Positions 5,001 through 46,721 of a DNA stretch of 64,000 nucleotides are shown in pieces. Below the pieces are notes generated by a model. It had not been told where the DNA came from. It saw nothing but the letters and a program-made list of their open reading frames with translations, and searched no databases. The stretch is from Desulfococcaceae bacterium HSG9. Its GTDB lineage: Bacteria > Desulfobacterota > Desulfobacteria > Desulfobacterales > JAUCGF01. The position numbers and the translations under genes were made by a program. Positions within the stretch are counted from its first letter, which is position 1. Every line of letters begins with the position of its first letter. The stretch is from the NCBI GenBank assembly GCA_030378005.1, contig JAUCGF010000072.1, positions 10,542 through 74,541 on the forward strand. Direction: 5' to 3'.

Positions 5001-5066
5001 TTAATCTTAATCTTAATCATAATCTTAATCGAAAAGCGATTAAGATTAAGATTATGATTATGAACA
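5001..5066. repeat. Long imperfect hairpin built from AATCTTAATC units between the DUF2339 and DUF3999 genes.
   Basis: cttaatcttaatcataatcttaatcg-aaaag-cgattaagattaagattatgattat gives a stem of about 24 bp with 1-2 mismatches. It is followed by the RBS aaggag of the next gene. Confidence 0.7.
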
Positions 5067-5079
5067 AGGAGATAAGTAA

Positions 5080-6465: not shown

Positions 6466-7039
6466 TGTGGTTTGAAGAATCGGGCTTTTCTTAAAATTGA
6501 TTGTTACATTTTCACGGAAGATTAGATCATGACCGTCCTATTATCAGTAGATGGAAAATGTCTGAAAATACAGCAGGGAGCGCAAAAATTAAGCACAGCG
6601 GTTTTTTGCCGGCCCCTAAGTTTTCATCTACTGATTAATTGATGCTTCCGCTATCTTATTCATAATAAGCTCCTTTCTAATAATTATTGCATTTCGTTCA
6701 AAACAAAGCTTATTATAAATCACCATCAATACGGTTGTTAACTACTTTTTGATGCAATCCCCCTGGTCTAATGATCAAATCAAGTTGCTATTTTAACAGT
6801 TATATGCTAATCTGAAAATTTTTTGGCTTGATTTTGGACAATTTAAAAATATTAATGTAAATTAATTCAAATGATTGTAATATTTGAAATCATAGTCTTC
6901 GTTTGGAAGGTATGGCTTCGTCTATTTATATTTTACACAAACAAAACCTTGATGTTAAAGGGTTTTCGCTTTTTCCAAAATGGCTAAAGTCGAGTAAGGT
7001 TAAAACTGTTTATTAACTTAGTATAACAGGAGGCATCTG

Positions 7040-7867: not shown

Positions 7868-7946
7868 ATTGTGCAGGTTTCAGTGTTCAGGTTATGTTCG
7901 TCACCTCCTGACACTCGAAGCCTGACGCTATGTTTTTTGAAAAGGA

Positions 7947-8822: not shown

Positions 8823-8867
8823 TTCTTTGTTACCGCGTTACATTTATAGTGTGATTTACGTTTGTCG

Positions 8868-9689
8868 TTAGAATTGAAAATATGAGGATTCCATCGCGAG
8901 TTCGGTTTCGGGGAAAATTTTCTTGGCTTTAATCAGGATGGCTTCAAGATCGGCATCACTATTTTCAGGATCGTGATGGGCAAGATAGAGTTTGCTCACT
9001 TGGGCTTTGCGCGCGGTTAGCGCCGCTTCTTCCCATGAACTGTGACCCCATCCGGCTTTAAGCCCTTTTTTGTCTTCTGGCGTGTATTGCGCATCATGGA
9101 TTAGCACTGTCGCTCCTTTTACAAAATCAACCACCTTTGAGCTGATGCCTTTCTTAGGATGTTCATGATCCGTAATAATACACATTGAGCCTTTAGGGCT
9201 ATCAACGCGGTAGCCGATGGCTCCGTTCGGATGTGTCAACCTCACAGTACGGACAAAAACACCGGGTAAAACCTCCAAATTATCACCTGCACGAATTTCA
9301 TTAAAATTTAATAATCCTTGTAAGTTATCTATCTTTACAGGAAAATAGGGATGTTGCATTTGTTCGCTGAGGATTTTTTCCATCATTATTCCATCCCTTG
9401 GCTCACCATATATACGAAAACGATTTTCTTTCCGAAAAGCCGGTGCAAAAAATGGAAGGCCCTGTATATGATCCCAATGATAATGGGTTAAAAATATGCT
9501 TCCTTGCCAACAATCGCTATTTTCATTAGCCAAATACTGCCCCAACAGTCGCAATCCAGTCCCTGCATCAAAAACACAAATATAATCATCCAGGCGAAGA
9601 CTGACACATGTCGTATTACCGCCAACGATAATGGTGTCTCGTCCAGGAGTCGGAATTGAACCCCGTACGCCCCAAAAACGAAGAATCAT
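8868..9689 (-). CDS. MBL-fold metallo-hydrolase.
   Basis: THYHWDH (HxHxDH) motif and downstream His/Asp ligands. 273 aa. Confidence 0.7.
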   Translation of the reverse strand: MILRFWGVRGSIPTPGRDTIIVGGNTTCVSLRLDDYICVFDAGTGLRLLGQYLANENSDCWQGSIFLTHYHWDHIQGLPFFAPAFRKENRFRIYGEPRDGIMMEKILSEQMQHPYFPVKIDNLQGLLNFNEIRAGDNLEVLPGVFVRTVRLTHPNGAIGYRVDSPKGSMCIITDHEHPKKGISSKVVDFVKGATVLIHDAQYTPEDKKGLKAGWGHSSWEEAALTARKAQVSKLYLAHHDPENSDADLEAILIKAKKIFPETELAMESSYFQF

Positions 9690-30983: not shown

Positions 30984-33011
30984 GTGAAGATGAGTGAAAT
31001 CATTAGTAAAATAGGCGAAATCGCAGGAAAATTGACAGGTAAAATAGGATTTATTGTAACAGGAATCGGCTTGCTGTTTTTTGTTTTTGTTATTTTTCCA
31101 AATATTTTATATACCGTTGAACGAAACCATGTGGGCGTTATTTTCGATAATTTCGGCTCAGAATCCAAAGTGGCAGGCCGTTTTATCGTCGAAAAGGGCG
31201 AAAAAGGCTGGTGGCGGGAACCGCTGATGCCGGGAACTCATTTCTTCTGGCTTCTCCAACCGTTGTGGCAATATAAAATCAAGGAAGAACCGTTTGTCCG
31301 GGTGCCGGCCGGCAAAGTCGGCATTGTTTACGCCAGGGACGGCGAATCCATGCGACCGGGACAAATTCTTGCCGATCCGGATGTTTATCCGGGAGATATG
31401 GTAGATGGCAAAAAGGCGACCGCATTTAAAATAGGGCAAAAGGGACCGCGGTTGAAAGTTTTAGAGCCTGGCCACTATCCGATTAACTCTCAGTATTTGG
31501 AAGTCAAATTACAACCGGCCATTCAGATTCCGGAAGGTAATATCGGCATAATGACCCGCAAGATCGGCGATGAACCGCCAATCGGAACCGTGTTGGTGAA
31601 TAAGGATTCGCAGTACAGGGGAATTGTGCGCGAAATCTTGAATCCGGGAACCTATTACTTCAATCCCAAAGCGGTAAAAGTTCAAATTGTAAAAGCCGTT
31701 GTAATCACAAAAGGGCAGGTGGGCATTGTTACCAAAAAAGTTGGCAAGATGCCGCCCGGCGGAACGATTTTGGTGGAAGCGAACGATGAATACCAGGGTA
31801 TTCAGCGCGAGGTGCTCCAACCAGGCATGCATTATATCAATCCATATCAGCAAGATGTCAAGATTGAAAATGCGGTTCAGGTTCCCGACGGCCATGTGGG
31901 CGTGCAAATCGCCAAAACCGGTGATGGCAAGCCCGTGGATCAGTTGCTGGCCAAGCCCGGTCAACGAGGGATTCTTGAAGAAACCTTGTCGCCGGGGTTG
32001 TATTATATCAATCCGTATGAAACCGAAGTCGTGGTTGTGGATATCAGACAGCAACGCTATGAAATGACTTATATTGAAGGCATGGGCGATACACAGCAAT
32101 CCGATGCCATTGTCTTTTATTCGGATGACGGTTTTATCATTGCCATCGATTTGACAGTCCTTTATCAGGTGCTTCCCCAGGATACGCCGCATGTCGTGGC
32201 CACAGTCGGTCGGACGGTCAAAGATATCCGTGATAAAATCATACGGCCCCAAGCCCGATCCTTGGCAAGAATTCTCGGTTCCAAATACAAAGGTGAGGAC
32301 TATGTACACGGTGAGACCCGGGAAACCTTTCAAAATAATTTGGATGTCGCTCTGAGAGCGAAAAGCGTGTCAAGCAAAATCCAGGTCAATCAGGCGTTGG
32401 TAAGGCATTTCGAGGTGCCGGACACACTACGCGGACCGATTACAGCCAAGGTCATCGCTTTGAAAATGCAGGAAAAATATGAGCAGGAACAGGAAACCCA
32501 AAAAGCCAATGCGGTGCTGGCGGGTGAACGCGAAAAAGTGACGTTTGAATCGGAAAAAATCAAGGCTGAAACCCGCAAGGCCAAAGCGATTATCGCCGCC
32601 GAAGAACAGCGCGACGTTGAAAAACTGAATATGGAAAAGAAAGAGTTTATCGCCCTCGGCGACGCCAAACAGAAAAAAATTCAGGCCGATGCCGATCTGT
32701 ATATGGCTCAACAGGACGCCAAAGGCATCCTGGCAAGGAAAAAATCGGAGGGCGACGGCGATAAGGTGATTATAGAAGCATGGAACAATCCGGGAGCCAA
32801 AAACAAAGTGGCTTTAAAAATGGCCGAAGTCTTGCAGGGCGCACGCTTGATTCCGCTTGAAATGATTTTTGGCGGTGGCGGCAAAGGCGGCGGCGGTGGC
32901 AACGCCCCGTTTATGTACGGTGACACACTTGATATTCTGAAATTTTTAGGGGTTAAAAAAATGGAGGAAATGAAACAGCAAGGCGCACAAAGCCAGGACA
33001 AAGAAAATTAA
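30984..33011 (+). CDS. SPFH/band-7 (flotillin-like) protein with N-terminal TM, four internal repeats of about 40 aa, coiled coil and Gly-rich C-terminus.
   Basis: Repeats of the form xPGxYYINPYxxxV...G.VG...K.G..PP, four copies. SPFH-like core (IVFYSDDGFIIAIDLTVLYQV). E/K/A-rich coiled coil. GGGGKGGGGGNAPFMYG tail. Confidence 0.6.
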   Translation: MKMSEIISKIGEIAGKLTGKIGFIVTGIGLLFFVFVIFPNILYTVERNHVGVIFDNFGSESKVAGRFIVEKGEKGWWREPLMPGTHFFWLLQPLWQYKIKEEPFVRVPAGKVGIVYARDGESMRPGQILADPDVYPGDMVDGKKATAFKIGQKGPRLKVLEPGHYPINSQYLEVKLQPAIQIPEGNIGIMTRKIGDEPPIGTVLVNKDSQYRGIVREILNPGTYYFNPKAVKVQIVKAVVITKGQVGIVTKKVGKMPPGGTILVEANDEYQGIQREVLQPGMHYINPYQQDVKIENAVQVPDGHVGVQIAKTGDGKPVDQLLAKPGQRGILEETLSPGLYYINPYETEVVVVDIRQQRYEMTYIEGMGDTQQSDAIVFYSDDGFIIAIDLTVLYQVLPQDTPHVVATVGRTVKDIRDKIIRPQARSLARILGSKYKGEDYVHGETRETFQNNLDVALRAKSVSSKIQVNQALVRHFEVPDTLRGPITAKVIALKMQEKYEQEQETQKANAVLAGEREKVTFESEKIKAETRKAKAIIAAEEQRDVEKLNMEKKEFIALGDAKQKKIQADADLYMAQQDAKGILARKKSEGDGDKVIIEAWNNPGAKNKVALKMAEVLQGARLIPLEMIFGGGGKGGGGGNAPFMYGDTLDILKFLGVKKMEEMKQQGAQSQDKEN

Positions 33012-33042
33012 GTACCTGAACAAAAGTTTTCCGGTATTTTAT

Positions 33043-33071
33043 AAATCGGATTTTTTAGAAAAATCCGATTT
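33043..33071 (+). terminator. Perfect 13-bp stem hairpin downstream of the SPFH gene.
   Basis: aaatcggattttt-tag-aaaaatccgattt. No clean U-tract on the + strand. Confidence 0.45.
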
Positions 33072-33174
33072 ATAGCAGAATTTGTAACCTGAAAATATAT
33101 GTCCAAGTACTTAGCCCCGGTTTCACTGTGTTTCCCACTTACCTGATTACGGATATTGACCCTATGGAGGTTGC

Positions 33175-34335
33175 ATGCTTATATCACGCTTAAAACTGAA
33201 AAATTGGCGGAATTTTCAACGTGCTGATGACATTCCGCTTCGTCAACGGCAGTTTATTGTCGGGCCGAATGCATCCGGAAAATCCAATCTACTGGATGTG
33301 TTTCGATTTCTCAGGGACATTGCCAAATTTGACGGCGGCGGCTTTCAAAAAGCGGTCAAAGACCGTGGCGGCGTGTCCAAAATGCGTTGCCTGGCGGCCC
33401 GACGCGATCCTGAAATCGTTATTGACATCTCGCTTTCAAATGATCCTGATGATGTGGAACCGCTATGGAGATATGCTATCGGGATTAAACAAGAATCCCG
33501 CGGATACAGGCAGCCCATATTATCTTTTGAAAAAGTTTGGGAGCGCAATAAGCTGATTTTAAATCGACCTGATCCTACGGATAAAGAAGATGCGGAAAGA
33601 TTAAAACAAACTTTCCTTGAACAGGTCAACACCAATGCCGATTTCAGGGATATTGCACGCTATTTGAATTCCGTCAGTTACATTCATCTGGTTCCTCAAT
33701 TATTGCGTTCGGATGCTTTTTTCCAAACCGGTGCGCTCGAAAATGATCCTTTCGGACAAGGTTTCCTTGTAAGAGTGGCTAAAATGACCCCTCGAACCCA
33801 AAAATCGCGGTTGGCCAAAATAGAAAACGCTTTAAAAATTGCGGTTCCCCAGTTACAGCAACTTAAATTTGAAAGAGATAATGATACGGGCAAACCCCAT
33901 CTTGCCGCTCTTTATTCACACTGGCGACCTAAAGCGGGATGGCAACGTGAAGATCAATTTTCAGACGGCACATTGCGTTTGATCGGGTTACTTTGGGCGC
34001 TGCTGGAGGGTGACTCTTTGCTGTTATTAGAGGAGCCTGAACTATCTTTAAACAACGGCATCGTATCGCGACTGGCTCCGCTGATATATCGCATGCAGCG
34101 TCAAGGTAAACGTCAAGTCCTGATTAGCACACATAGCGAATCACTCCTTAGTGATAAAGGGATTGATGGCCGTGAAGTGCTATTATTAACGCCCGGTCAG
34201 GAAGGTTCCTCAATATATATCGCCGGAAATATCAGTGATGTCAAACCGTTGTTAGAAGCGGGTCTATCCGTGGGCGAAGTCGTTTTATCACGAAGCAAAC
34301 CGCCTGAAGTGGAACAACTGGAATTATTCGGATGA
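33175..34335 (+). CDS. Stand-alone ABC/SMC-like (AAA_21/AAA_15-type) ATPase.
   Basis: Walker A GPNASGKSN. ABC signature-like DGTLRLIGLL. Walker B/D-loop LLLLEEPELSLN. H-loop ISTHSE. No fused nuclease domain. Confidence 0.7.
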   Translation: MLISRLKLKNWRNFQRADDIPLRQRQFIVGPNASGKSNLLDVFRFLRDIAKFDGGGFQKAVKDRGGVSKMRCLAARRDPEIVIDISLSNDPDDVEPLWRYAIGIKQESRGYRQPILSFEKVWERNKLILNRPDPTDKEDAERLKQTFLEQVNTNADFRDIARYLNSVSYIHLVPQLLRSDAFFQTGALENDPFGQGFLVRVAKMTPRTQKSRLAKIENALKIAVPQLQQLKFERDNDTGKPHLAALYSHWRPKAGWQREDQFSDGTLRLIGLLWALLEGDSLLLLEEPELSLNNGIVSRLAPLIYRMQRQGKRQVLISTHSESLLSDKGIDGREVLLLTPGQEGSSIYIAGNISDVKPLLEAGLSVGEVVLSRSKPPEVEQLELFG

Positions 34336-34885
34336 GCCGTATTTATATCACTTTAGCCGTTGAAGATTCCCTGGTGGATATTGGCATGGTTACAGCATTT
34401 AACCTCCCGTCAAACCAACGCAGTCAAAGCGCTGCCCTTTAAATTTGGTGTCTTCTATTTCAGCATCAAAGGTTACGGTTGTGTTTTCTGACGCCATTTT
34501 CTTGCTTATTAACTACCTTCAGCACAGTAAGCTAGGCCCACCAATACGGCCGATGTAGGCATTAGCACGAGCAGAGCCAACCCGACTAAACAATTTTAAT
34601 CATATCATTCACGGTACACACTGATAATCTTTTTTTGAAGCTTGACAATTATTATTCAAATTAATATTTATCTTAAATGTTTAGGGAGTTTCTTTCTCAG
34701 AGGAATGAATGTAATGGAAACAAAGGAAGAACGGAAATGAAAATCAAGTTGTCACAGGTGTTCCAAGCACTATGATAAAATTGGAAAATTATCTGAAAAA
34801 CAAGGCTTGATATTGATATTATTAAGTATTATGCGAATGCTTAATCAAACTTATTAGCAGAATAGTAACATTATCATATCATTTT

Positions 34886-37800
34886 ATGAACCTTCTTGAC
34901 TTTATAAAACTAAGTAAATTTGGTACTATGAAAATCTATAAAAAATCCATATCACATTTTTTGAAGTCTACTGACGCATTTACCCTTGACGACTTTTTAC
35001 GTCAATTTTTTTCATATTGCAAAAAAAGATTAAAATGCGATGGTGTATCTATATTTTTTTATTCAAGTGCCATAGATAAGCTTGAATTGTTTTTCCATTC
35101 CCAAATAAATCCATATTTGTTATCTTTGAAAACAGACGAAGGCACAGTTGGGAGCGCATTTAAAACAAGCCGGCTAGCGTGGGGTGATGGTGACGAGTCT
35201 GAAAACAAATGGTTAGATGCTAATTCTTGTCCAGAGGATAAAATTAGAGGCATTATTGCCTTGCCTCTGAATATTTATAAAATACCATTTGCTATCATCT
35301 GTTTCCAATATCATGAAAAAAATCAGCCTCCATTTGGTAAGCTAAAAAAAGGATTTTATAAACAGGAATCAAAAACGGTAAAAACTTTTTGGAAAGAATC
35401 AAAATCTGCGAATCTCGGTCGTTTTATTAAAAAACTTCGTTTGCAACAGATCACAACGGATTTAAGAAGTACGGGAGAAGCTCCGACATACCTGAAATCT
35501 ACTGGAAGTGAATTTATTGCCAAACTTCAGAAGGCTTTCAAAACTGATCAACAACCTATTCCACCTTTCATCGGCATTCAAATCGTAGATCATCAGCAGC
35601 AAAAAATTAACAGCCTTCACAGTGTGGGGATGCCTTTGGGATACGAATATGCTCATTCCATCCCTTTTTCTTCCGATGATATTCATGCGGATATTTTAAG
35701 GACGCGTAAAATCGAAATAATTTCTGGCAATGACACAAAGCGATTTGATCAGACCATTTTTTCTAAGTATTCCCATGATAAATACATACGCCTATTTATG
35801 CCCTTATTTCCTATCAATTATATCTATGACAACAAAAATTATGATAACTTAAAGATTGAAACCCTTTTGAATTTCAGCCCAAAAAAGAACCCTCATCGTT
35901 TTGAATTTACTTGGAATAAAAAACGTCCGCCCCAAGCTCTAATCTACGGCACATTGGAACTCGGTTATATAAAGAAAGGTTCGGGTATGTCTCCATGGAA
36001 CAAGGAATTAGCTTATTGGGTGGTAAAGCATGCCTTAGAATTAAGTAAACAAATTTATGATTCGACTTTTTCAGGCATATTGGACAAAATCGGAATCCTC
36101 TTAGCTTCTGTGCCGGACGCAGCCCTTAAAAAGTTTACATGTGAATTTCCCGGAGGAATATTCCACGGTTTGCGTGAATACCCGATTCAAAATGAAGGAT
36201 TGCTTGTACTGCCTAAAAGGATGCCGGTAAAAAATTATGATAAAGGCGAAGCTGTGGATAGCGATAAATTTATCCCCTGCAAACCAATTTCGCTTACTTA
36301 TAGACCAATAAATTTAAAAAATTTTCCCAAAGAGATCAAAAACGATCTGAAGTGCATTTCAAAAATTGCAGCAAAAGCTGTAGATATCGCCCTTCGCCTC
36401 CTAGATAGTACTATCGTTCAACATGAATTTTTATACATCGCTGAATCAATTAATAATGTTGGCACTTTATTCCATGATAAAATTTTGGATTCTGTATGTA
36501 ATGAGGCATTACTTTGTTCTGGTGCGAATTGTTGCATGCTTTACCGGTTTACTAAAAGAACAAAACCTTATCTTACTTCAAAAAATGATAAACTTTGGCT
36601 ATTTGGCTCTCCGATAAGCGCACCTAAATCCACTGATGTTCGTTTTCTTGTACAATCTGAAGAAGAAACCATTCATAAGGTTGCCCAATCTAAAATGCCT
36701 ATATATTCATCAGATTATGAGAGCAATCAATCAGAGAAGAGCAATCCATATTGTTTACTTCCGATGGAAATAATTGATGGGCCTGTGTGTGTGTTATTAT
36801 TGTGTTTTTCAAGAGGGTATTTGTTTAACAATCAAGAGAAATTTAACTTAGAAAATCAAGTTGTCAAGTGGGTGGCTCGATTATCTATGCGCCACCTTAT
36901 CCTTAGACAACGATTTTCAGACTTAATGATGCGGCTTAGGATAACTATTCAGGAGATTAGTAAATCGCTGGAGCAAAGTACTGAAAGGCGCATGCCAATT
37001 TTCTTAGAAAAGCTATTAATAGAATTGGTAAAATTAGTAAATTCAAATGCGGCGAGTATAACTGTTTACTACCAGCCTAAAACCGGTACTGAATGGCTCA
37101 GGCGATTTATTTGTTGTAGGGGAGATGACGAAAATGAGATACTTTCCGAGAACCATGATTTTATTAATGCTAAATTAGAAGGCCCTTGCCATGATGCTTG
37201 TGTTAAATCTAAGATTATCATTATACACCAAAGAAATGAAGATAATGGTATTATAAATGTCGTCAATGCTATTGAAAGAATCGTAAACAATAATGGTTGT
37301 TCAAACGAAAAACGCAAAACATTTCAGCAGTATTCCAATTGGCTAACAGGGGACAACACTCCTTCAACCGTAATAACCTTTCCAATTCCCGAATGGAACA
37401 ACGATCAAACTATCCTAAAGGCATCTGTAACAATAGTATTGCCAAAAATTCACTATTTAGATTTTTACCACAAACACCTCATTGATGAAATTGGTGCTTT
37501 GATTGCCGAAACAATGCGCCATATAAGGCATTTGGATAGCAAAGATTCAGAAACAATACATTTAGATCAGTTTGAACAAAGACGGTTAGCTTTTGAGAAA
37601 GCGAAACATCCAGATGAAATCATTGGGATTTTGTTAGCTGGAATGGGTAGAAAAATAACATTTTCAAAGATGGGGGCTTGGAATTTAGCTGAAGACGTAA
37701 TAATCTGGAACCTTGACTGGGGCAATAAAAACCTAATCGTACGATCAGCGCGAGGGAATGGAATGGCAGCATTCCAAAATACACAAAATCTGCTGTATAT

Positions 37801-39505
37801 CAATTGTGATGGCCACCCTATGCTCAAAAAGGAAGGGATTTTTTTTACCAAAAATAAGCCCCCAAGACTGCGTTCAAAATTTCAACTATGGACATTTGCG
37901 CTACAAATCGAATCTAAATATAATCCTCTTTGCCATGCTTATTTGAACAATATAGGTTGTCAAATCCTTGTAAGTTTTCCGATAGTTGACGCAACGGACA
38001 GAATTCATGGAGTTATCGATCTTTTATTAGATACCCCCTTTTATGAAGAGGAAGGCCCTGTTTTCAAAAGGCTATTTTATCGTATGTCACATGGATTTTG
38101 CAATGCGGTTGATAAATGCCAAAAAAGTCGTATAAAAAAAATAACCGATGATTTATATTATAATGTTAAACCTTCTCTGCTGTATTTCCAGACTGATGAA
38201 ATATACTCCCAAATTGTTATACGCATGAAAAAGGAGTTTCAGGGAGAACATTGCGATCTGTTTATTGTAAGAGGTCGTAAAATGCTCCTTCAATCAACAA
38301 CGCGGGAAAAAATTATTGAAACAAATAAATTGCATACCGATTACTGGATTAAACCCGATGAATCGAACCGAGAAATACTTGGTGCCTGTTTTTATAACAA
38401 GAAACCTATTTTATTTCATTCGGGCCAAAAAAATCATTCATACAATCATGTATCAAAAAAGTTGAGAAAAGTGATATGCGAGGATTTTAATTTTGAAAGA
38501 ATGGCCTTTCCGATTATGACAGGTACAGGCCATGAGGAAACCATTATCGGAATACTTCATATCAGAGGACCGGTGAAACTATCGCTAAAACAAGATGATG
38601 ATAAAGCATTTGAAAAAAAAACAGTTAAAAAAAGCACCCTCTTCACTTACGAGGACTATCTCCTTTGTCTCAACCTATGCGTATCAATACAGCGGATAAT
38701 TCAGATGGCGAATCTCGTTGAACGTCAAGGGGGGTTAGTATTGGAACTCGCCCATTCAATCGAACAGCCTCTGCAATTTCTTCGTTCACCTATTCAACAC
38801 GCTCTTCGTTTGCTTCCGTGGAACAATCCTACTTTACAACCTGAATTAATCAACATTAAAAATGAAATATACCATGGGTTTCATCTTGCCATAGAAGCAA
38901 AGGATCATATCGGTTGGCTTGCACGTAGTAGCCATCGAAATGGCAAGGATATTGAATATCAATTTGAAAAAAGCGACCTCTCAAATTTGATCCGGCAGCA
39001 GTGCCATTTTATGAATTCAAAAGCTTCTCAAGACGGCATCCCCATTTATTGCAATGTGAAACAGTTGAAACCTTTACCTTTTCATAAAGATTTGATGAAA
39101 AAAGTGATAATCAATCTCCTTGACAATGCGTGCAAGTATTCATGGTCAAATAAGTATATTAATGTAAGGGGTTACGAACATTATGGCAAAATCAAGATAA
39201 TAGTAACAAACTTTGGTGTCGGTATTCCCAAGGAACAAATGAACAGAATATTTGAACCCTATTATCGCGCCCGTGTTCTGGACGCAAAAGGAAAGAGGTC
39301 CGGGTCAGGCATAGGACTTGGCATTGTCAAAGAAGTGATTGAAAAGATACATAAAGGTACCGTCACTGCGGAAAGCTATCCAAATAAACCGATAAATACA
39401 AACCAGGTTGTCGAATCAATGGAAGTAATAGAGAATGTCGCGCATTTGACCAAATTTATAATAATTTTAAATAGGGAAACCTTAGAGCAGCTAAACCTCG
39501 AATAA
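34886..39505 (+). CDS. Giant multi-GAF sensor histidine kinase (1539 aa).
   Basis: N-terminal GAF-like segments (for example GTVGSAFKTSRLAWGDGDESE...IRGIIALPL). C-terminal HisKA H-box LELAHSIEQPLQFL, N-box NLLDNACKYS, G-box GSGIGLGIVKEVIE. Confidence 0.7.
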   Translation: MNLLDFIKLSKFGTMKIYKKSISHFLKSTDAFTLDDFLRQFFSYCKKRLKCDGVSIFFYSSAIDKLELFFHSQINPYLLSLKTDEGTVGSAFKTSRLAWGDGDESENKWLDANSCPEDKIRGIIALPLNIYKIPFAIICFQYHEKNQPPFGKLKKGFYKQESKTVKTFWKESKSANLGRFIKKLRLQQITTDLRSTGEAPTYLKSTGSEFIAKLQKAFKTDQQPIPPFIGIQIVDHQQQKINSLHSVGMPLGYEYAHSIPFSSDDIHADILRTRKIEIISGNDTKRFDQTIFSKYSHDKYIRLFMPLFPINYIYDNKNYDNLKIETLLNFSPKKNPHRFEFTWNKKRPPQALIYGTLELGYIKKGSGMSPWNKELAYWVVKHALELSKQIYDSTFSGILDKIGILLASVPDAALKKFTCEFPGGIFHGLREYPIQNEGLLVLPKRMPVKNYDKGEAVDSDKFIPCKPISLTYRPINLKNFPKEIKNDLKCISKIAAKAVDIALRLLDSTIVQHEFLYIAESINNVGTLFHDKILDSVCNEALLCSGANCCMLYRFTKRTKPYLTSKNDKLWLFGSPISAPKSTDVRFLVQSEEETIHKVAQSKMPIYSSDYESNQSEKSNPYCLLPMEIIDGPVCVLLLCFSRGYLFNNQEKFNLENQVVKWVARLSMRHLILRQRFSDLMMRLRITIQEISKSLEQSTERRMPIFLEKLLIELVKLVNSNAASITVYYQPKTGTEWLRRFICCRGDDENEILSENHDFINAKLEGPCHDACVKSKIIIIHQRNEDNGIINVVNAIERIVNNNGCSNEKRKTFQQYSNWLTGDNTPSTVITFPIPEWNNDQTILKASVTIVLPKIHYLDFYHKHLIDEIGALIAETMRHIRHLDSKDSETIHLDQFEQRRLAFEKAKHPDEIIGILLAGMGRKITFSKMGAWNLAEDVIIWNLDWGNKNLIVRSARGNGMAAFQNTQNLLYINCDGHPMLKKEGIFFTKNKPPRLRSKFQLWTFALQIESKYNPLCHAYLNNIGCQILVSFPIVDATDRIHGVIDLLLDTPFYEEEGPVFKRLFYRMSHGFCNAVDKCQKSRIKKITDDLYYNVKPSLLYFQTDEIYSQIVIRMKKEFQGEHCDLFIVRGRKMLLQSTTREKIIETNKLHTDYWIKPDESNREILGACFYNKKPILFHSGQKNHSYNHVSKKLRKVICEDFNFERMAFPIMTGTGHEETIIGILHIRGPVKLSLKQDDDKAFEKKTVKKSTLFTYEDYLLCLNLCVSIQRIIQMANLVERQGGLVLELAHSIEQPLQFLRSPIQHALRLLPWNNPTLQPELINIKNEIYHGFHLAIEAKDHIGWLARSSHRNGKDIEYQFEKSDLSNLIRQQCHFMNSKASQDGIPIYCNVKQLKPLPFHKDLMKKVIINLLDNACKYSWSNKYINVRGYEHYGKIKIIVTNFGVGIPKEQMNRIFEPYYRARVLDAKGKRSGSGIGLGIVKEVIEKIHKGTVTAESYPNKPINTNQVVESMEVIENVAHLTKFIIILNRETLEQLNLE

Positions 39506-39546
39506 TAATAATTAATACAAAATAGATGAGAGACAGGAGATAAATT

Positions 39547-40080
39547 ATGAACCTACTAATCATAGAAGACGAAGAGAATATAATTAACGGTATTAAACGT
39601 GCTTTTCAAAGCTATTGCGATTTTGTTAAGTTTATTGAGGCCAAGGACGCAAGTGAAGCTTTAGCTAAAATTTACGCTGAAAGCTCCAAAAAACCGGATG
39701 CAATTATTCTTGATTTAATGATGTCTTATGGAAGCAATAAGGAGACTAGAACGCTTTTAGATGCAGATGACGATCCAATGATGACAGACGCCGGAGTACA
39801 AATTCTAAAGCAGTTGAGACTAAAAGAGGACGAAGATAATAGATTTTTTGAGCATTATCCCCTGTATGTTGCCATCATAACTGCCCGAAGTGAACCGTTA
39901 TTACATCAGGAATTAAATAGATATTTAAAAGGATGGGGAAAGATTTATGCTAAACCTTTCAATGAAGATGAACTCGTAAATGATATATTGTACGTATTCG
40001 GCAAAGAAAGTAAAGTTATTCCTGAACTTTTACCATCCGGTTATAAAGTTCCTGAAAACAGATACGGAGACAGACAATGA
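39547..40080 (+). CDS. Atypical stand-alone receiver (REC) domain protein with an insertion after the phospho-acceptor Asp.
   Basis: LLIIEDEE (beta1 acidic pair), ILDLMM (Asp57 position), VAIITARSE (Thr87 position), KPF (Lys105-Pro). A 20-aa insertion SYGSNKETRTLLDADDDPMMT. Confidence 0.55.
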   Translation: MNLLIIEDEENIINGIKRAFQSYCDFVKFIEAKDASEALAKIYAESSKKPDAIILDLMMSYGSNKETRTLLDADDDPMMTDAGVQILKQLRLKEDEDNRFFEHYPLYVAIITARSEPLLHQELNRYLKGWGKIYAKPFNEDELVNDILYVFGKESKVIPELLPSGYKVPENRYGDRQ

Positions 40081-42791
40081 ATCAAGAGCAGTTCGAGCAA
40101 CTGAGTAAAAAAATTATGGGAAAAGTGTTAGATTGCGACGATCAAGAAAAACTACTAAAAATATCATGTCATTTGCTTCATGCACAGGCTGCAATTCTAT
40201 TGGAATGTCATCATAGAAATGGCAAAATAAGGCCTGAAATTCTATCTGCTTATCCTAAAGAAGATATTGATTTTTTTAAATCTAACATCACAAAGCTTAG
40301 AAAATGGTATGATATTTCAGACCTTCCGGAAAATAATCCTGGTTTTGCAGAAAATAAAGAGATTTGGATAGGAAAAAAAGTTTTTCCATCTGCGCTTGTT
40401 GCTTTTGGAAATCAAGAACCTATAACCGGGAAAATTAAACGGGAACTAATTTTAATTAAAAATCCGACCTACACAGGTCCGTATTTGTCTTATCATTGCT
40501 GGGCTGCAGCAGTGCTTCTAAGACATTATGAATACTTCATAATAGAAAAAGAAATCCTAGCGAAAGAGAAGCTGCATTCAAAACAATTAGTATTAAATAT
40601 CAATGAAATACTTCCAAATATGAACTACAAAGAAATTGAAGAAAGTGTTAAAGAGTTAGATCATATTGAAAAATGGAAACGTTATATCATTTGGGTTGGA
40701 TACCAGGTCAGAAAAAAAAGAGCCGACGAAAAATTTAAAAATCTCAAGAGCATAAAAGAGGAAATTATTAAACTCAAGGAACCGGATTTAATCTTGGGAC
40801 AATCAATTCAATTCTTGTTAAACGAACTTGTTGAAACTGATACGAAGACTTTTCTATGTGAATTAGCAGAGAGAATAACAAAAGGTGAATATAAAACTTT
40901 TAGCAGTATTGGAGCAATAGTTTTAGAGCATGGTTGGCGAATCATTCGGAAAAATATTCGAATCGCTGAGACGAATTTAAGACCTGTTGACAATAAGTAC
41001 CTGATTAATGAAATTGAACCGCTTTTAGAATTGACAAAAGTAATTTTGGCATACGCTCTGTGTAATAAAAAAGATGGTGAAAGCCAAAAAACCGAGGAAA
41101 AAATTGAAATCGGACGAGGCTTCCTGCGCCTTTACTTTGCATATATAATCATTGCTGAATCGCCTCGTCTTTACTCTCTTTATTTGAACCAAGAAGCAAC
41201 AGAAAAACGTACTAAAGCGCCTGATGAGTTGAAGCGTATTTTCATTTTAAATTTATCACGATTTATCTTGGCGGCGGTTGCTATTCTGCAAAAGCAAAAA
41301 TTAGATATGTTTATTGAACCCACTGTAATCACGCCTGCCGAAGAGCTTGATAGCCTGTTATATATTGTAGACCGCTATGGGCATATTGAATTAGGAATTG
41401 ATGAAACAATCCATATCCGTGAACTTCTTGCCAATCAGACCACTGCTGAAATCAGGCATTATATGGCACAAGCCTTTTACCGCGACCATTTATTGCATGT
41501 CATTGATGTTTTCTTACTCGGACACCTTTTGCTCCACACAAATATATGCTGGCAAAAGAAGGAAAAAAAACGGTTTGTTGAGCAGCTATCGAATAGGAAT
41601 GAGCAATTAACGTTATCCGATGAAAGGGGATTCCTTAAAAATTGGGCTGTCGCTTCACTTTTGCACGACATCGGTTATCAAATCGGGGAAGGTTCCAATA
41701 TTTCTCAAGAGCAAAAAGTTTGGGAGGTTTTTTTTAAACTGAAAGAACCGATAAAGGCCAAATGGTTAGAATTCACCTTTGCTGGTAGTGCAAATAAGAT
41801 CAATCCTAAAAAAAGGATTGGCTATCTTAAAAATTTGGTAAAAGAAATCTGTAATTCTGATGGCCTTAAAAAATGCTTTCCCGAACAACTATCTGATTCT
41901 ATTACAGACCATGGTGTTTTGAGCGCTCTTCGGATCGTCCAAATTTTGATTAACTCAGAACACAGTCAAGCATTCAATGAGAAACTATCGGATCATAAGC
42001 AAGCTGAAAAATATTTTTATGCGATCCATGCGATTGCGCATCATAATTTGCATGGTGAATGTGTTCATTTTAAATCTCATCCTATCTCATGTCTTCTGCG
42101 TCTCTGCGATGAACTTCAGGAATGGTCTCGTAAGCGAGTGAATAACGAAAAAATTGTTAAAGATCTATATCTGGATATTCAATATGATAGATCCGGAAAA
42201 ATAGTCGGGTATGAATTGTTTAAATCTTTTATGGCTAATCTGGAAATAACGATCAAAAAGGAAGAAAATACTAAAAGTGAAATAAACATAGGTCTGATAG
42301 CGAATGAAAGTGAAACAGCAAAACCCCGGTTTGAATTCTCACTCACTTACCGAGACGCCCTTCAAGCCAATTTCATTCCTATGATAGCGTTGATGTGCAA
42401 GGCTTATAATCTTCAATATCTTGATTTATCTGAAACCTATTTCGGAGAAGGCGACTTATCGTTCGCTTTGGATTTGTTTTTCCCAAAACCTAACGAATTT
42501 AAATGGCTGACCGAATATGACATCTACGGCCTTTTTACGGAAAAAGATAGAAGGTTTTCATTATTGGAGCTATTTGATTCAATTAAGGATGGCAGACCCG
42601 GTCTGATACGTTTAAGAGATAAGTCTGATCAGGGTGACCATTTCGGTATTATTATAAGCCGCAAAAACAATCCTGAGCATCATCAGGGCTGGTTGCATAC
42701 TAATCCTAATTACATTTATGAAGATTACAAAGATTTCAGGGAAAAATATTTAGCTGACAAGCGCCTTTATTTGAAGCCTTCTTCATCTTAA
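40077..42791 (+). CDS. Large (904 aa) HD-domain protein of unknown family, translationally coupled to the receiver gene by an ATGA overlap.
   Basis: Canonical H...HD...H...H...D spacing: GHLLLH, ASLLHDIGY, DHGVLSA, IAHHNLHG, LRLCDEL. The N-terminal 450 aa and C-terminal 200 aa are unassigned. Confidence 0.55.
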   Translation: MNQEQFEQLSKKIMGKVLDCDDQEKLLKISCHLLHAQAAILLECHHRNGKIRPEILSAYPKEDIDFFKSNITKLRKWYDISDLPENNPGFAENKEIWIGKKVFPSALVAFGNQEPITGKIKRELILIKNPTYTGPYLSYHCWAAAVLLRHYEYFIIEKEILAKEKLHSKQLVLNINEILPNMNYKEIEESVKELDHIEKWKRYIIWVGYQVRKKRADEKFKNLKSIKEEIIKLKEPDLILGQSIQFLLNELVETDTKTFLCELAERITKGEYKTFSSIGAIVLEHGWRIIRKNIRIAETNLRPVDNKYLINEIEPLLELTKVILAYALCNKKDGESQKTEEKIEIGRGFLRLYFAYIIIAESPRLYSLYLNQEATEKRTKAPDELKRIFILNLSRFILAAVAILQKQKLDMFIEPTVITPAEELDSLLYIVDRYGHIELGIDETIHIRELLANQTTAEIRHYMAQAFYRDHLLHVIDVFLLGHLLLHTNICWQKKEKKRFVEQLSNRNEQLTLSDERGFLKNWAVASLLHDIGYQIGEGSNISQEQKVWEVFFKLKEPIKAKWLEFTFAGSANKINPKKRIGYLKNLVKEICNSDGLKKCFPEQLSDSITDHGVLSALRIVQILINSEHSQAFNEKLSDHKQAEKYFYAIHAIAHHNLHGECVHFKSHPISCLLRLCDELQEWSRKRVNNEKIVKDLYLDIQYDRSGKIVGYELFKSFMANLEITIKKEENTKSEINIGLIANESETAKPRFEFSLTYRDALQANFIPMIALMCKAYNLQYLDLSETYFGEGDLSFALDLFFPKPNEFKWLTEYDIYGLFTEKDRRFSLLELFDSIKDGRPGLIRLRDKSDQGDHFGIIISRKNNPEHHQGWLHTNPNYIYEDYKDFREKYLADKRLYLKPSSS

Positions 42792-42857
42792 CAAAAAATC
42801 AGGTTTTCTCAAAAAGCCTGCCGATTCAAAGGCAATACGTTTGATATTGTTTGTCAT

Positions 42858-43943
42858 TTAAGGAATCACCGCCCATTTGACAGGGATTGATTGCTTTTGG
42901 GACGAAGGTTTATCCAGTTCAACTGTGATGGTTAATAAATTACCTTTGGTCCCCTTGGCGATGGCACCTTTTACTTTTACGCCTTGAATGTTGCCGTCAG
43001 CTTGAACCAGGACATAGCCCACATTCAGGACGACATGTTTGTTTAAGACAATCTCTTTAATTGCGGTGCTTTGATTTGTGTCAATGGTAACATGCGTCAG
43101 GCCAGAATCAGTGACTTTACCTCGCATTGACGCGATATTTTGACTGATGGTTTTGGCGGCATCTTCATTCTTTTTGATTTTTTGCGTGATAATCGCAAGA
43201 TTTGAAGTTTGTTTATTCAGTTCAACGTAAAATTGCAAAGACCCCCATAGAAGCCCCAAAATGCCGGGCAGGGAAAATATAAGCAACAAGAGTTTCCACT
43301 TGGTTCTGAATTTAGCCAACAATTCCTGAAACCATGATTGCGATGCGCGGCTGCTGCCAAACGGGTCTATTTCATCGGTTAAGATTTTAAACCAGTTGTT
43401 GCCATAATGATGACAGGTGTCGATGATGGTATTTGCGTCACTTGAATCCGGGTCGATTTGGAAAAAGAACAGGCGCGCAATTTCTTCACCCAATCTGATT
43501 TTAATGGCTCGGTCGGAAAAATTGATAATATGCAGCTTGAGCACGCCTTCCCACAAACTGTCAATATATGAGGGTTCGACATGCAAGCCTTTGGAATAAT
43601 TGGTCACGCGGGACAGAATGATGCCGGTGATGCGCCGGTCGATTTTGATCCATTCGTTGGTGAAAACAACTGCGGATTCTCTGGCTTTCAGCTTAAAAGC
43701 GCCATTGCCTTTGCGCATATCACAAATCTGTTTGTGGTTGCCAAAACGTTGTTTTCGGTGAATGTTGCGGCCGGACAAGGGCATGACCAAAGGGCCGAGG
43801 GTCAGCCCCAATTTATTTCTGATTATTTTGGATTCAAAAAATTTGAAAGCTTCATCATCTTGTACAATATCAACCGGGTGTTGGATAAATCTGACGCCTT
43901 GATCATCCGGCAGAAAATAATATTTAAGTTCGATTAAGCCGGA
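42858..43943 (-). CDS. dCTP-deaminase/dUTPase-fold domain protein fused to a TM helix and a C-terminal domain of unknown function. The open frame extends to 43943, but the only canonical start is TTG 43811.
   Basis: GLHVEPSYIDSLWEGVLKLHIINFSDRAIKIRLGEEIARLFFF matches the Dcd/dUTPase ID.GW.G motif. The upstream in-frame peptide (LIELKYYFLPDDQGVRFIQHPVDIVQDDEAF...) looks like the Dcd N-terminus. TM segment LLLLIFSLPGILGLLWGSLQFYV. Confidence 0.5.
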   Translation of the reverse strand, partial: SGLIELKYYFLPDDQGVRFIQHPVDIVQDDEAFKFFESKIIRNKLGLTLGPLVMPLSGRNIHRKQRFGNHKQICDMRKGNGAFKLKARESAVVFTNEWIKIDRRITGIILSRVTNYSKGLHVEPSYIDSLWEGVLKLHIINFSDRAIKIRLGEEIARLFFFQIDPDSSDANTIIDTCHHYGNNWFKILTDEIDPFGSSRASQSWFQELLAKFRTKWKLLLLIFSLPGILGLLWGSLQFYVELNKQTSNLAIITQKIKKNEDAAKTISQNIASMRGKVTDSGLTHVTIDTNQSTAIKEIVLNKHVVLNVGYVLVQADGNIQGVKVKGAIAKGTKGNLLTITVELDKPSSQKQSIPVKWAVIP

Positions 43944-44000
43944 TCAGATTGAGTTGATTATTTTATTATCTGAAAGCATTTTTACAGATTACATTTCCGC

Positions 44001-44624
44001 TTAAAGGTTTAAAAGGAAGCCCCGTGCCTTTTTAGCTAATAGATGTTTGCGTGTCAAAGATGTGGGTGTGACTGTTAATGGAATAATTTCGGCGATGCGG
44101 ACGCCATTTTGTTCCATTCCCGCTATTTTGTCAGGATTGCAAGTGAGCAGTTCAATGGAAACTACTTGTAACTTCCTGATGATCGCTGCGGCTTCGCTGA
44201 AATCCCTGATATCAGGCGCTTCTCCTAAGGCTTCCACCGCCGAATATGTGTCCATGCCTTTATTTTTATTGGCAAGCGCCAAAATCTTCTTGGTCAACCC
44301 ATGCCCGCGTCCCTCCTGGTTTAAATAGATTAAAATTCCTTGGTTTCTTTGGGCAATCATCGCCAGTGCCTGTTCCAACTGCTCCTTGCAATCACATTCG
44401 GCGGAATCCAGCGCAATACCGGTCAGGCATTCAGATTGAAGACGACATAACACATTTTCCTGCTTGTGTATATCCCCTTTGACAAGCACAACATGTTCTT
44501 GGGCTGTATGAACATTTTTGGCGATATAAATCTGAAATTTTCCATAAGTATGGGTCGTATGAACAGCTTTAGCGGTGAAAGCAATATCATCCGCAGAAGA
44601 TTTCAAGTTTGAGTGTTGCATCAT
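44001..44624 (-). CDS. GTP cyclohydrolase II (RibA)-like enzyme.
   Basis: RLQSECLTGIALDSAECDCKEQLEQAL conserves the three-Cys zinc motif of RibA (HSECLTG...C.CG.QL). EGRGHGL and RDF motifs are present. No other rib genes are nearby. Confidence 0.65.
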   Translation of the reverse strand: MMQHSNLKSSADDIAFTAKAVHTTHTYGKFQIYIAKNVHTAQEHVVLVKGDIHKQENVLCRLQSECLTGIALDSAECDCKEQLEQALAMIAQRNQGILIYLNQEGRGHGLTKKILALANKNKGMDTYSAVEALGEAPDIRDFSEAAAIIRKLQVVSIELLTCNPDKIAGMEQNGVRIAEIIPLTVTPTSLTRKHLLAKKARGFLLNL

Positions 44625-45169
44625 TACGCGCCCTGCTCAAGATTAACAATCATCGTGTCATAGCCATGTAAAACGCGGTCTTGTGCTTGTATGCCCAATT
44701 CTGATAGAAATGCAAACAATTCTTGCTGAACCTGTGCGCCGTCGATTTTTTCTGATGACATACATTCCACTTCGATAAAATCGCCCAATTTATCCACCTT
44801 GTCAATGCAGATCGTATAGTCAGCATATTTGCCGGTCATTCTTTGTTTGCGATAGCGCACCACTTCATAATAACCCATCATTGCCAGCATAGCGCCTGTT
44901 TTCTCAAAATCGGATACGATCACTTCGTTTTCAATACAATCCAGTTCGTTATGGCGGTGCTGTTTGATTGTAAACCTGACCGTGTCATTTTCTTTTCTTA
45001 AACGCAGGATATTGACGCCGGCGGTGATATCGGCGAACCGCATCCCTTGTGATAAAAAGATATAATCTTCCTGGGTGATTTTTTCAGAAAAGATGCATCC
45101 CATGTTTTCCAGCTTGTGAAGAATCTTATCCGGTTCTTTTAATTTGGCTTTGACTTCGATTTCAATCAT
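44624..45169 (-). CDS. CYTH-domain protein (class IV adenylate cyclase / triphosphate tunnel metalloenzyme family).
   Basis: N-terminal MIEIEVKAKL EXEXK motif. About 180 aa. The stop overlaps the downstream start by 1 nt. Confidence 0.65.
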   Translation of the reverse strand: MIEIEVKAKLKEPDKILHKLENMGCIFSEKITQEDYIFLSQGMRFADITAGVNILRLRKENDTVRFTIKQHRHNELDCIENEVIVSDFEKTGAMLAMMGYYEVVRYRKQRMTGKYADYTICIDKVDKLGDFIEVECMSSEKIDGAQVQQELFAFLSELGIQAQDRVLHGYDTMIVNLEQGA

Positions 45170-45495
45170 AAAAACAGTCTTTCTGATTTTGTGATAATAA
45201 AGTGTTTGACGATCAACGCTTAAAAGCCAAGATTATATTATAATCCGGATGATGTCAATGTCAGGATTATCATTCGCTGCCAACAAAATACGGGAGAGCT
45301 TAAAAATCGGGTTTCTCAGTCATTGCAACTTCCGCAGCTTTTCCTTGTTTTAGAAACCCGATTTTTTGTCCCTTATGAAAAAAATCAGGTTGCCTTAAAA
45401 ATTTTGTTCAGATACTTATTGATTGTAGCGTGCTTGTGATTAAGTTAAAGTGAGGCGGATAAGGAATGAGGAGAAAATAAATTCCTGACTGTCCG

Positions 45496-45523
45496 TGAAA
45501 CGTGAATTCACGTATCACGTTTC
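45496..45523. promoter_or_regulatory. Nested palindrome in the divergent intergenic region between the CYTH operon and the Smr gene.
   Basis: gaaacgtga-attcacgta-tcacgtttc, containing the perfect palindrome cgtgaattcacg. Confidence 0.45.
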
Positions 45524-45586
45524 AAAAATCACATTATGGCCTGAACTTCTACCCTTTTCTCATCATCATAAAAAGCGAGCGGCGGT

Positions 45587-46339
45587 TTGAAAAGAAAAAA
45601 GAATAACGCTTCCTGTTCTCACAGGCCGTTTAAGCACCTGAAAGCACTTCTGCAAGACAAAAACCTGCCGCTTGCGTCTTTGCCGCGTAAAATTTCCGTA
45701 AAAAAAATTGATCTCGATCCGGACGATCCCGAATATGAAGACAAGCTTTTTATAGCGGCCATGTCAGACGTTGTTCCCCTTGCAAAAGGAAACTGTATCC
45801 GCAATGTTCCGGAGAGCAGGCCCCCGAAACATCATCATCGTCAATCGACCGGTAAAAGCAAATCTGATGGCCGCGCAGATTCCGAAAGTCTGCTGCGTTT
45901 GAAAGAACTTGTGGAAAAAGGGAAAGGCTTTGTGGTTGCGCATACACCGGAATACATTGAAGGCCGTGTATATTGCGACAACCCGGAAATCACCAAACGC
46001 CTGCATCGGGGGGATTTCGCCATTCAAGGGCATATTGATCTGCATGGTTTGGGCGTCGAAGCGGCTCGGAAAGCGTTTGACAGTTTCCTCAAAGAGACGC
46101 TGCTTGCGGGTAAAAGGGCGATTTTGGTGGTTCATGGCCGTGGGTTGTCTTCTCCGCATCAGCCGGTTTTGAAAAACAAAGTTCAAGACTGGCTCACCCG
46201 CGGCCCCTGGCGTAAATGGATCATCGCTTTCACCAGCGCGCGCTCTTATGATGGTGGTGCCGGAGCGACATACGTTCTTCTGAGGCAGCGGCCTTATACG
46301 AAACGAATGCGCAAAAAATTTGCGCCTGAAAAATATTAA
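45587..46339 (+). CDS. Smr-domain protein.
   Basis: IDLHGLGVEAARKAFDSFLKE...ILVVHGRGLSS is the Smr (MutS2 C-terminal) signature. Confidence 0.7.
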   Translation: MKRKKNNASCSHRPFKHLKALLQDKNLPLASLPRKISVKKIDLDPDDPEYEDKLFIAAMSDVVPLAKGNCIRNVPESRPPKHHHRQSTGKSKSDGRADSESLLRLKELVEKGKGFVVAHTPEYIEGRVYCDNPEITKRLHRGDFAIQGHIDLHGLGVEAARKAFDSFLKETLLAGKRAILVVHGRGLSSPHQPVLKNKVQDWLTRGPWRKWIIAFTSARSYDGGAGATYVLLRQRPYTKRMRKKFAPEKY

Positions 46340-46367
46340 GGGATGGCTGTCACACACATAGAATGAT

Positions 46368-46721
46368 TTCCATTTCGATAATTTCGGTTCTGAGTCCAGG
46401 ATAGCAGGCCGTTTTGTGAAAGAGTTTATCGCCCTCGGCGATGCCAAAGGCATCCTGGCAAGGAAAAAAGCGAAGGGCGACGGCGATAAGGTGATTATAG
46501 AAGCTTGGAACAATCCGGGAGCCCGAAACAAAGTGGCTTTAAAAATGGCCGAAGTCTTGCAGGGCGCACGCTTGATTCCGCTCGAAATGATTTTTGGCGG
46601 CGGCGGTGGCAACGCCCCGTTTATGTACGGTGACACACTTGATATTCTTAAATTTTTAGGGGTTCAAAAAATGGAGGAAATGAAACAGCAAGGCGCACAA
46701 ATCCAGGACAAAGAGAATTAG
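46368..46721 (+). pseudogene. Internally deleted remnant of an SPFH-gene paralog.
   Basis: 46370-46418 matches 31143-31187 of the intact gene. 46419-46721 matches its last 370 bp (about 93% identity, two in-frame deletions). The central 1.45 kb is absent. Confidence 0.75.

Follow-up and report, generated by a model that had tools for sequence, protein, structure and literature searches.

The 64,000-nucleotide window analyzed here, a stretch of the Desulfococcaceae metagenome-assembled genome (MAG) HSG9, contains a compact AT-rich cassette of three genes, encoding a 1539-amino-acid (aa) sensor histidine kinase, a stand-alone receiver of 177 aa and a 904-aa HD-domain protein (hereafter the effector). 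The reading that we favor, with a probability of roughly 0.6, is that the cassette is a self-contained phosphorelay operon, acquired horizontally, whose receiver, once phosphorylated, acts in trans to switch an HD phosphodiesterase. The three products are identical (100%) to the NCBI entries MDM8540781, MDM8540782 and MDM8540783, the first labeled 'HAMP domain-containing sensor histidine kinase' and the other two 'hypothetical'. The three co-directional open reading frames (ORFs) at 34886–42791 have the lengths reported in an earlier interpretation made from the DNA letters (the sequence-only reading), and the overlap of the receiver stop codon with the effector start codon (ATGA) that it described can be read directly in the sequence. 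Ribosome-binding sites (GGAG/AGGAG) are located 8 nt before the receiver start and before the effector start. The coordinates of all features are collected in Table 1.

Comparative evidence argues strongly for the proposed wiring. The kinase–receiver–HD gene order is found in about 18 loci (the window and L001–L004, L007, L008, L084–L087, L089, L090, L093/L094, L095, L096, L098 and L100), which comprise every close homologue with enough upstream DNA, without exception; two more contigs end within the receiver. These loci are only 26–45% identical, the genes overlap or nearly abut in most of them, and the pairwise identities of the kinases and HD proteins co-vary (r = 0.86). Among the named hosts are Desulfobacterales and further Thermodesulfobacteriota, one Cytophagales MAG and one Pseudomonadota MAG of high GC (guanine-plus-cytosine) content; the metagenome contigs are unbinned, and the GC content of the contigs ranges from 39 to 67%. 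The synteny that the sequence-only reading expected in relatives is therefore present, and its suggestion of a receiver and HD output split over two genes receives direct, Rosetta-stone support from P0013 (locus L006), a single 1089-aa protein that consists of the HD protein with the same insert-bearing receiver joined to its N-terminus. In a second variant, the metagenomic protein P0057 (1793 aa), the single divergent GAF domain is replaced by three canonical GAF domains and a LacI-type periplasmic-binding-protein domain, which precede the helical, HD and C-terminal module. A word-indexed search returned 25 matches for the close family. An exhaustive HMMER search of 1.84 billion representatives yielded about 45 full-length clusters at 50% identity, with 171 clusters of the HD family at E <= 1e-30 and 2075 at E <= 1e-3.

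In the kinase from the window, HATPase_c is the only domain matched by Pfam, above threshold (E = 1.3e-16). Word-indexed protein searches with this kinase, whether singly or as a six-sequence profile, gave only the protein itself and generic kinases; homologues were therefore collected from the related loci and aligned, and share 22–37% identity with the window protein. The residues of the N, G1, F and G2 boxes (N1410/N1414, G1444/G1446, F1456 and G1473/G1475/G1477) are invariant in six homologues. H1290 sits 124 residues ahead of the N-box, and an NCBIfam LciS match covers residues 1287–1500. With H1290 and all four boxes invariant, the kinase is predicted to be competent.

The sensory portion of the kinase was compared with 38 canonical GAF domains by profile–profile alignment (hhalign), which detected three GAF-like domains at 95–97% probability and two further weak candidates. 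In the homologues from L002, L003 and L007, Pfam GAF_2 is above threshold at the N-terminus, in the same place as the first of these domains. The 'multi-GAF' description in the sequence-only reading is partly borne out; Pfam itself detects only HATPase_c in the window copy. The best conserved sensor segment (residues 225–365, approximately) has invariant residues Q232, D235, G248, P250, L251, D265, R302, PLFP at 306–309 and G355–E358, but it is not GAF-like by hhalign and matches nothing. Simple hydropathy analysis of the kinase revealed no convincing transmembrane segment, in agreement with the cytoplasmic location already proposed. Given the hhalign domains, the GAF_2 matches in homologues and this hydropathy profile, it is reasonable to describe the protein as a cytoplasmic multi-GAF kinase with at least three GAF domains.

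The 177-aa protein is, as judged from its sequence, a variant receiver but still a receiver. The Pfam Response_reg match scores 33.4 bits (cut-off 30.2) and covers residues 4–60 only, ending there because an insert directly follows the acceptor strand. A profile built from nine receiver homologues matches CheY-like regulators in the PDB (E = 1e-11). Residues D8, D51, D56 and K136–P137 are invariant in the nine homologues, T112 is present, and E7–D8 provide an acidic pocket; with D8, D56, T112 and K136 in place and a CheY-like profile match, the receiver is predicted to be competent. The insertion after the acceptor aspartate noted in the sequence-only reading is real: it is seen in the alignment of the nine homologues, and in the profile alignment the solved structure of RR468 has a 16-residue gap facing it. 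The insert (about 16–20 aa) occurs in all nine homologues, among them the fused P0013 and the distant locus L011. D56 and T112 are separated by 56 residues, and an uninterrupted (beta-alpha)5 core of about 120 residues is not found. The equivalent spacing in CheY is about 30 residues. Beyond alpha-5, the chain continues in a conserved tail of about 40 residues. The protein resembles the class that includes CheY, DivK and Spo0F in being a stand-alone CheY-like receiver with all of the phospho-chemistry residues, and its closest solved relatives are such proteins; it differs from them in the insert after beta-3, in the tail, and in its predicted partner, an HD enzyme whose gene lies downstream and overlaps that of the receiver.

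The effector yielded no family match in Pfam, NCBIfam or PADLOC beyond a sub-threshold HD domain, and neither the HD-family profiles nor the C-terminal domain retrieved anything meaningful when searched by sequence against the PDB. AlphaFold models of the full-length protein (pLDDT, for predicted local distance difference test, 79.8; predicted template modeling score, pTM, 0.75) and of residues 420–904, built with 83 sequences (pLDDT 91.7, pTM 0.92), suggest a four-part architecture in which an N-terminal alpha/beta domain is followed by a long helical scaffold, the HD domain and a C-terminal alpha/beta domain. The N-terminal domain has a GAF fold. The HD domain combines the H…HD…D metal ligands with an all-helical fold, as is characteristic of the HD superfamily. 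In a set of 83 relatives that extends to about 20% identity, H530, D531, H612, H656 and D678 do not vary, and H471, H474, D611 and N657 are at least 90% conserved, so that the H-HD-H-H-D motif set proposed from the DNA is indeed conserved across homologues. The pattern H…HD…H…(H)H…D has been assigned to polynuclear (di- or trinuclear) HD phosphodiesterases, and H…HD…D to mononuclear phosphatases and deoxynucleoside triphosphate (dNTP) hydrolases of the same superfamily (PMC8177086). Taken together, these data indicate that the effector represents a divergent HD family not covered by the Pfam, NCBIfam and PADLOC models.

In the predicted model, the HD fold is closest to that of class I cyclic-nucleotide phosphodiesterases. 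Class I enzymes are recognized by the PROSITE signature HD[LIVMFY]xHx[AG]xx[NQ]x[LIVMFY] and by a match to Pfam PDEase_I, a combination that the effector does not show. Membership in this class was rejected: the HD[LIVMFY]xHx[AG]xx[NQ] signature is missing from the effector, which reads HDIGYQIGEGSN, and no sequence similarity is detectable to the GAF-regulated members PDE2, PDE5, PDE6, PDE10 and PDE11. Further differences are the extra histidine ligands of the effector metal site, the added C-terminal domain and the predicted control by a partner receiver. Membership in the HD-GYP family was likewise rejected, since the HHExxDGxGYP signature is absent (the window reads AHHNLHGECVHF), no aligned member contains GYP, and PF13487 gave no match. 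The analogy to HD-GYP outputs drawn in the sequence-only reading therefore holds in function only. In that functional sense a close comparison is to RpfC/RpfG with its REC–HD-GYP protein (REC, receiver), where a histidine kinase controls, via a receiver domain, an HD-superfamily hydrolase with polynuclear-type ligands, and where the output is likewise enzymatic and not transcriptional.

The compositional break described in the sequence-only reading is sharp. The GC content of 34560–42830 is 35.6%, as compared to 43.9% for the remaining window; the lowest value among 392 other 8.3-kb windows is 40.7% (standard deviation 1.3%), and 1-kb bins inside and outside of the block differ significantly (Mann–Whitney p = 2e-6). 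Both borders are abrupt, with a fall from 0.45 to 0.27–0.30 at approximately 34,590 and a right border at approximately 42,800–42,850. Third-codon-position GC (GC3) is 0.30–0.33 in the cassette genes and 0.41–0.52 in the adjoining genes, and because the drop is largest at this position, low GC as a mere effect of amino-acid composition was rejected. The Lys/Asn/Ile-rich usage that had also been claimed is present but modest (0.22–0.25 for the three residues combined, versus 0.16–0.25 in the flanks). Promoter-like sites occur at 34749–34776 and 34854–34882, at a frequency not above that in shuffled sequence, and no short target-site duplications are evident at the cassette borders. Cassette GC is also below that of both flanks in L001 and L008, and below that of one flank in L002 and L003.

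To the left of the cassette lies an orphan HEC-01A ABC-type ATPase gene (33175–34442; PADLOC E = 4.8e-152). In Ralstonia, HEC-01A overlaps by ATGA with the gene for its 202-aa TOPRIM partner HEC-01B (E = 4e-74); the corresponding overlap in the window opens only a 36-aa ORF, MSRIYITLAVEDSL…, which alone has no PADLOC match, and a tblastn search detected no significant remnant of HEC-01B elsewhere in the window. Because the AT-rich cassette begins about 150 bp farther along, HEC-01B seems to have been deleted or displaced. Transposases and insertion sequence (IS) elements, an integrase and a relaxase flank other cassettes. The composition, the truncated HEC-01B at the left border and these mobile flanks in homologues support the proposal that the block was horizontally acquired, as the sequence-only reading had suggested.

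In the mechanism that we propose, the kinase would sense an intracellular cue via its three or more GAF-like domains (at least three) and the conserved segment at approximately 225–365, autophosphorylate on H1290 and pass the phosphate to D56 of the receiver. The phosphorylated receiver would then dock on the GAF–HD effector, probably through its insert and C-terminal tail, and docking would switch the HD active site, which has the ligand set of dinuclear-type phosphodiesterases. The effector GAF domain may provide a second, ligand-dependent input. The output would be hydrolysis of a phosphodiester in what is most likely a nucleotide, for example a cyclic mono-, di- or oligonucleotide or some related compound. 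Given that no cognate synthase is found in the cassette and that the cassette moves between phyla, the substrate is probably present in most bacteria.

Several points weigh against this reading. The genes, catalytic residues, folds, conserved order and receiver–HD fusion are computational observations; the phosphotransfer, receiver–effector binding, chemistry, enzymatic activity, substrate and cellular role are inferred for all members of the family, and for the HD chemistry the basis is the predicted fold and ligand pattern. Pfam HisKA was not detected, and H1290 is therefore assigned as the phospho-accepting histidine by position and invariance only. The Pfam HD model (PF01966) scores 14.1 bits on the effector, below its cut-off of 22 (E = 0.058), and reaches E <= 1e-4 in only one of 60 intermediate relatives. 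Conservation does not extend to H655, the 'extra' histidine of the HH pair. None of the loci has a nucleotide cyclase linked to the cassette. Finally, the flanks are rich in mobile and conflict genes, which fit defense at least as well as regulation.

This last point leads to the alternative that has to be taken most seriously, although it remains tentative: the same wiring may have an immune role, as a Detocs-like defensive two-component system in which the kinase would respond to phage infection, the receiver would pass the signal on and the HD effector would destroy an essential nucleotide pool, a nucleic acid or a signaling nucleotide of phage or host, resulting in abortive infection or growth arrest. 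Detocs, which consists of the DtcA kinase, the stand-alone receiver DtcB and the receiver–effector DtcC, provides a precedent for a kinase, stand-alone receiver and enzyme effector acting as a defense system (bioRxiv 10.1101/2023.01.24.525353). The compositionally foreign cassette adjoins the orphan HEC-01A, an ATPase of a defense candidate, but HEC-01 itself gave no protection when tested (bioRxiv 10.1101/2024.01.29.577857). Homologous cassettes lie near mobile genes, PemK, HipA-type and UPF0175/DUF3368 toxin–antitoxin genes, HEPN_RiboL-PSP with RtcB, TPR–CHAT, TIR_2 (two cases) and SLOG genes, as listed locus by locus. The family is rare and phyletically patchy, with only the 45 or so full-length clusters described above; among its remote HD relatives, the one at L083 belongs to a TIR–nucleotide kinase–radical SAM operon and the one at L043 neighbors a MORN–DUF4062–STAND–TPR protein, and no cognate messenger synthase travels with the cassette. 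On the other side, viral contigs and phages contain no member of the family and plasmids practically none (one remote Parabacteroides match), and the sensors (GAF domains, the periplasmic-binding-protein domain of P0057, PocR in L011) are of small-molecule types, as is typical of metabolic signaling. The sole PADLOC matches of the three proteins are weak and are to generic kinase and receiver parts of the candidates PDC-M43B and PDC-M60B.

The likeness to Detocs lies in the operon layout, with three genes for a cytoplasmic sensor kinase, a lone receiver and an enzyme effector predicted to act on nucleotides, and in the modular organization and mobile or defense contexts. However, the stand-alone receiver is here the only one, since the effector lacks a receiver except in the fusion P0013, and the sensors are GAF domains instead of TPR and the effector an HD protein instead of PNP. 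Membership in Detocs was rejected on the basis of the effector without its own receiver and of the PADLOC search, which gave no match at E <= 0.1 to a Detocs-named model, with the presence of Dtc models in PADLOC-DB 2.0.0 not verified. It is conceivable, if doubtful, that the cassette is the founding case of a new defensive two-component family, in which a multi-GAF kinase would detect infection or a nucleotide alarm, the insert-bearing receiver would relay the signal and the GAF–HD effector would degrade a universal nucleotide or nucleic acid and so abort the infection. This would be a second independent recruitment of a phosphorelay into immunity after Detocs, via an HD family without a Pfam model. 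In favor of such a role are the mobile settings rich in conflict genes, the family's rarity and the absence of a linked synthase; the small-molecule sensor domains and phosphodiesterase-like fold favor a role in nucleotide or second-messenger turnover.

A second alternative concerns the chemistry. The HD domain could be a phosphorelay-switched nuclease (Cas3- or YhaM-like) or a dNTP/NTP triphosphohydrolase (SAMHD1- or dGTPase-like), but this is improbable. Mononuclear phosphatases and dNTP hydrolases use H…HD…D, to which the family adds two invariant histidines (H612 and H656), and neither a helicase nor an OB-fold partner is present. In the fold comparison, Cas3 and SAMHD1 come far behind the phosphodiesterases, with shorter alignments, and membership in either group was rejected. 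That the three genes are mere neighbors, with the kinase and receiver regulating something else and the 904-aa protein unrelated or a dead scaffold, is very unlikely: Pfam and NCBIfam do fail to recognize the 904-aa protein, and NCBI calls both it and the receiver hypothetical, but the gene order is invariant at such low identity, the reading frames overlap or almost touch in most loci, the receiver and HD protein are fused in one homologue and all of the catalytic residues are conserved.

Because the cassette falls outside of the HD-GYP, class I phosphodiesterase, Cas3/SAMHD1 and Detocs groups, it is best regarded as a new variant of two-component signaling with an in-trans HD effector. The 1539-aa and 904-aa proteins are essentially unannotated, yet they belong to a strictly conserved, horizontally mobile unit of kinase, receiver and HD enzyme. 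A new HD-domain family, with about 170 strong clusters at 50% identity and about 2000 detectable ones, would emerge from characterization, which would also reveal how an insert-bearing stand-alone receiver controls an enzyme in trans and answer the question of whether enzymatic-output phosphorelays recur in mobile accessory functions, possibly including immunity. With a second messenger as substrate, the cassette would act as a transferable 'signal eraser'; with a bulk nucleotide or nucleic acid, the effector would be a new abortive-infection effector.

Table 1. Features of the cassette and its left border, in window coordinates
Feature	Position	Strand	Basis
AT-rich leader and putative promoter region, left compositional border	34590..34885	+	GC drop at about 34,590
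Sensor histidine kinase, 1539 aa	34886..39505	+	ORF; HATPase_c E = 1.3e-16; homologues upstream of receiver in all related loci
GAF-like domain 1 of kinase, residues about 31-167	34976..35386	+	hhalign 97% probability; GAF_2 in homologues
Conserved sensor segment of kinase, residues about 225-365	35558..35980	+	dense invariant columns in homologue alignment
GAF-like domain 2 of kinase, residues about 526-653	36461..36844	+	hhalign 96% probability
GAF-like domain 3 of kinase, residues about 1102-1271, adjoining DHp	38189..38698	+	hhalign 95.6% probability
Codon of H1290, predicted phospho-accepting His, H-box ELAHSIEQPLQ	38753..38755	+	invariant in six homologues
Catalytic ATP-binding HATPase_c domain of kinase, residues 1402-1499	39089..39382	+	Pfam match; invariant boxes
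Stand-alone receiver (REC), 177 aa, with family-specific insert and C-terminal tail	39547..40080	+	ORF; Pfam Response_reg
Codon of D56, predicted phospho-acceptor Asp	39712..39714	+	invariant; aligns with acceptor Asp of RR468
Receiver insert after beta-3, residues about 59-82, consensus MMPYG..L....DPD..ETG..LL	39721..39792	+	in all 9 homologues
Effector, 904 aa: GAF, helical scaffold, HD, C-terminal domain	40077..42791	+	ORF; AlphaFold models
N-terminal GAF-fold domain of effector, residues 1-130	40077..40466	+	
All-helical scaffold of effector, residues about 138-440	40488..41396	+	model secondary structure; without family or structure match
Predicted HD metal-dependent phosphohydrolase domain of effector, residues about 466-702, ligands H474, H530-D531, H612, H656, D678	41472..42182	+	
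C-terminal alpha/beta domain of effector, residues about 715-897	42219..42767	+	confidently modeled; conserved in family

The cassette is nested in a larger rearranged or island-like region, since a direct repeat of about 295 bp (32716–33011 and 46443–46721) brackets a 13.4-kb segment (33012–46442). The repeat corresponds to the 3' end, including the stop codon, of a gene for a 675-aa SPFH/Band-7 protein; the copies are approximately 91–95% identical with one 15-nt indel, and the downstream copy is a 101-aa gene fragment. The repeat may be a scar left either by an island that integrated at the gene's 3' end or by a duplication. Between the copies are the HEC-01A gene, the cassette, and dUTPase/DCD-like, GTP cyclohydrolase II, CYTH and Smr genes, and no integrase was seen within the segment. 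An Rfam scan of the window matched two tRNA-Ser genes and nothing else, with no tRNA beside the AT-rich island.

Short repeated elements occur in the same region. The intergenic motif AAAAATCRGGTTTYCT is present six times, as compared to an expectation of 0.56, with one copy immediately after the effector stop codon (42794–42809), three in the CYTH–Smr spacer (45302–45317, 45351–45366 and 45380–45395) and the others at 6022 and 23857. It may be a REP-like (repetitive extragenic palindromic) or recombination-related element. A 22-nt inverted pair (33009–33030 and 45397–45418) spans the region. At L001, from a Desulfobacterales MAG, two 1585-bp copies (2378–3961 and 13854–15437; 98.7% identical) of oligopeptide ABC ATPase genes (oppD/F) enclose the cassette together with an ISL3 transposase fragment, which points to a recent insertion or duplication or else to an assembly artifact.

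Beside the cassette, on the minus strand (42858–45169), lies a nucleotide-metabolism trio encoding a 317-aa dUTPase/dCTP-deaminase-like protein, GTP cyclohydrolase II and a CYTH protein. At L084, a DCD-family gene, an adenylosuccinate-synthase-like gene and a deoxynucleoside kinase gene are found near the cassette (17470–20170). The occurrence of DCD-family genes near cassettes may be a coincidence or may reflect a functional link.

More distant HD relatives with other sensors preserve the kinase–receiver–HD arrangement, including those at L011, L012 (Pirellulaceae), L013 (Nitrospira) and L015 (Verrucomicrobia). The L011 locus, from an unclassified MAG, is compact (4880–9450) and encodes a 454-aa PocR-sensor kinase, a 184-aa insert-bearing receiver, an unannotated 300-aa ORF and a 603-aa HD protein. 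The remotest relatives (Methanobrevibacter, Clostridia and Parabacteroides) match in the HD core only and occur without the kinase and receiver, in conflict-type settings. In Parasporobacterium paucivorans DSM 15970 (L043, 9737–15216), a 567-aa HD-core–RyR fusion is followed by a 1247-aa MORN–DUF4062–STAND ATPase–TPR protein. In Parabacteroides distasonis (L083, NZ_OY725812.1, 2057–7215), a 521-aa HD-core relative annotated as hypothetical is the last gene product of an operon encoding TIR-domain, hypothetical, nucleotide-kinase-domain, radical SAM and HD proteins, with an integrase alongside; this operon looks like an uncharacterized nucleotide-centered conflict system.

Two of the closer homologous cassettes are apparently decaying copies. 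At L085 (4326–11611), among IS fragments, the kinase retains only 1267 aa and the HD gene is broken into parts of 439 and 536 aa, and at L004 (1512–6195) the kinase is split by a frameshift.

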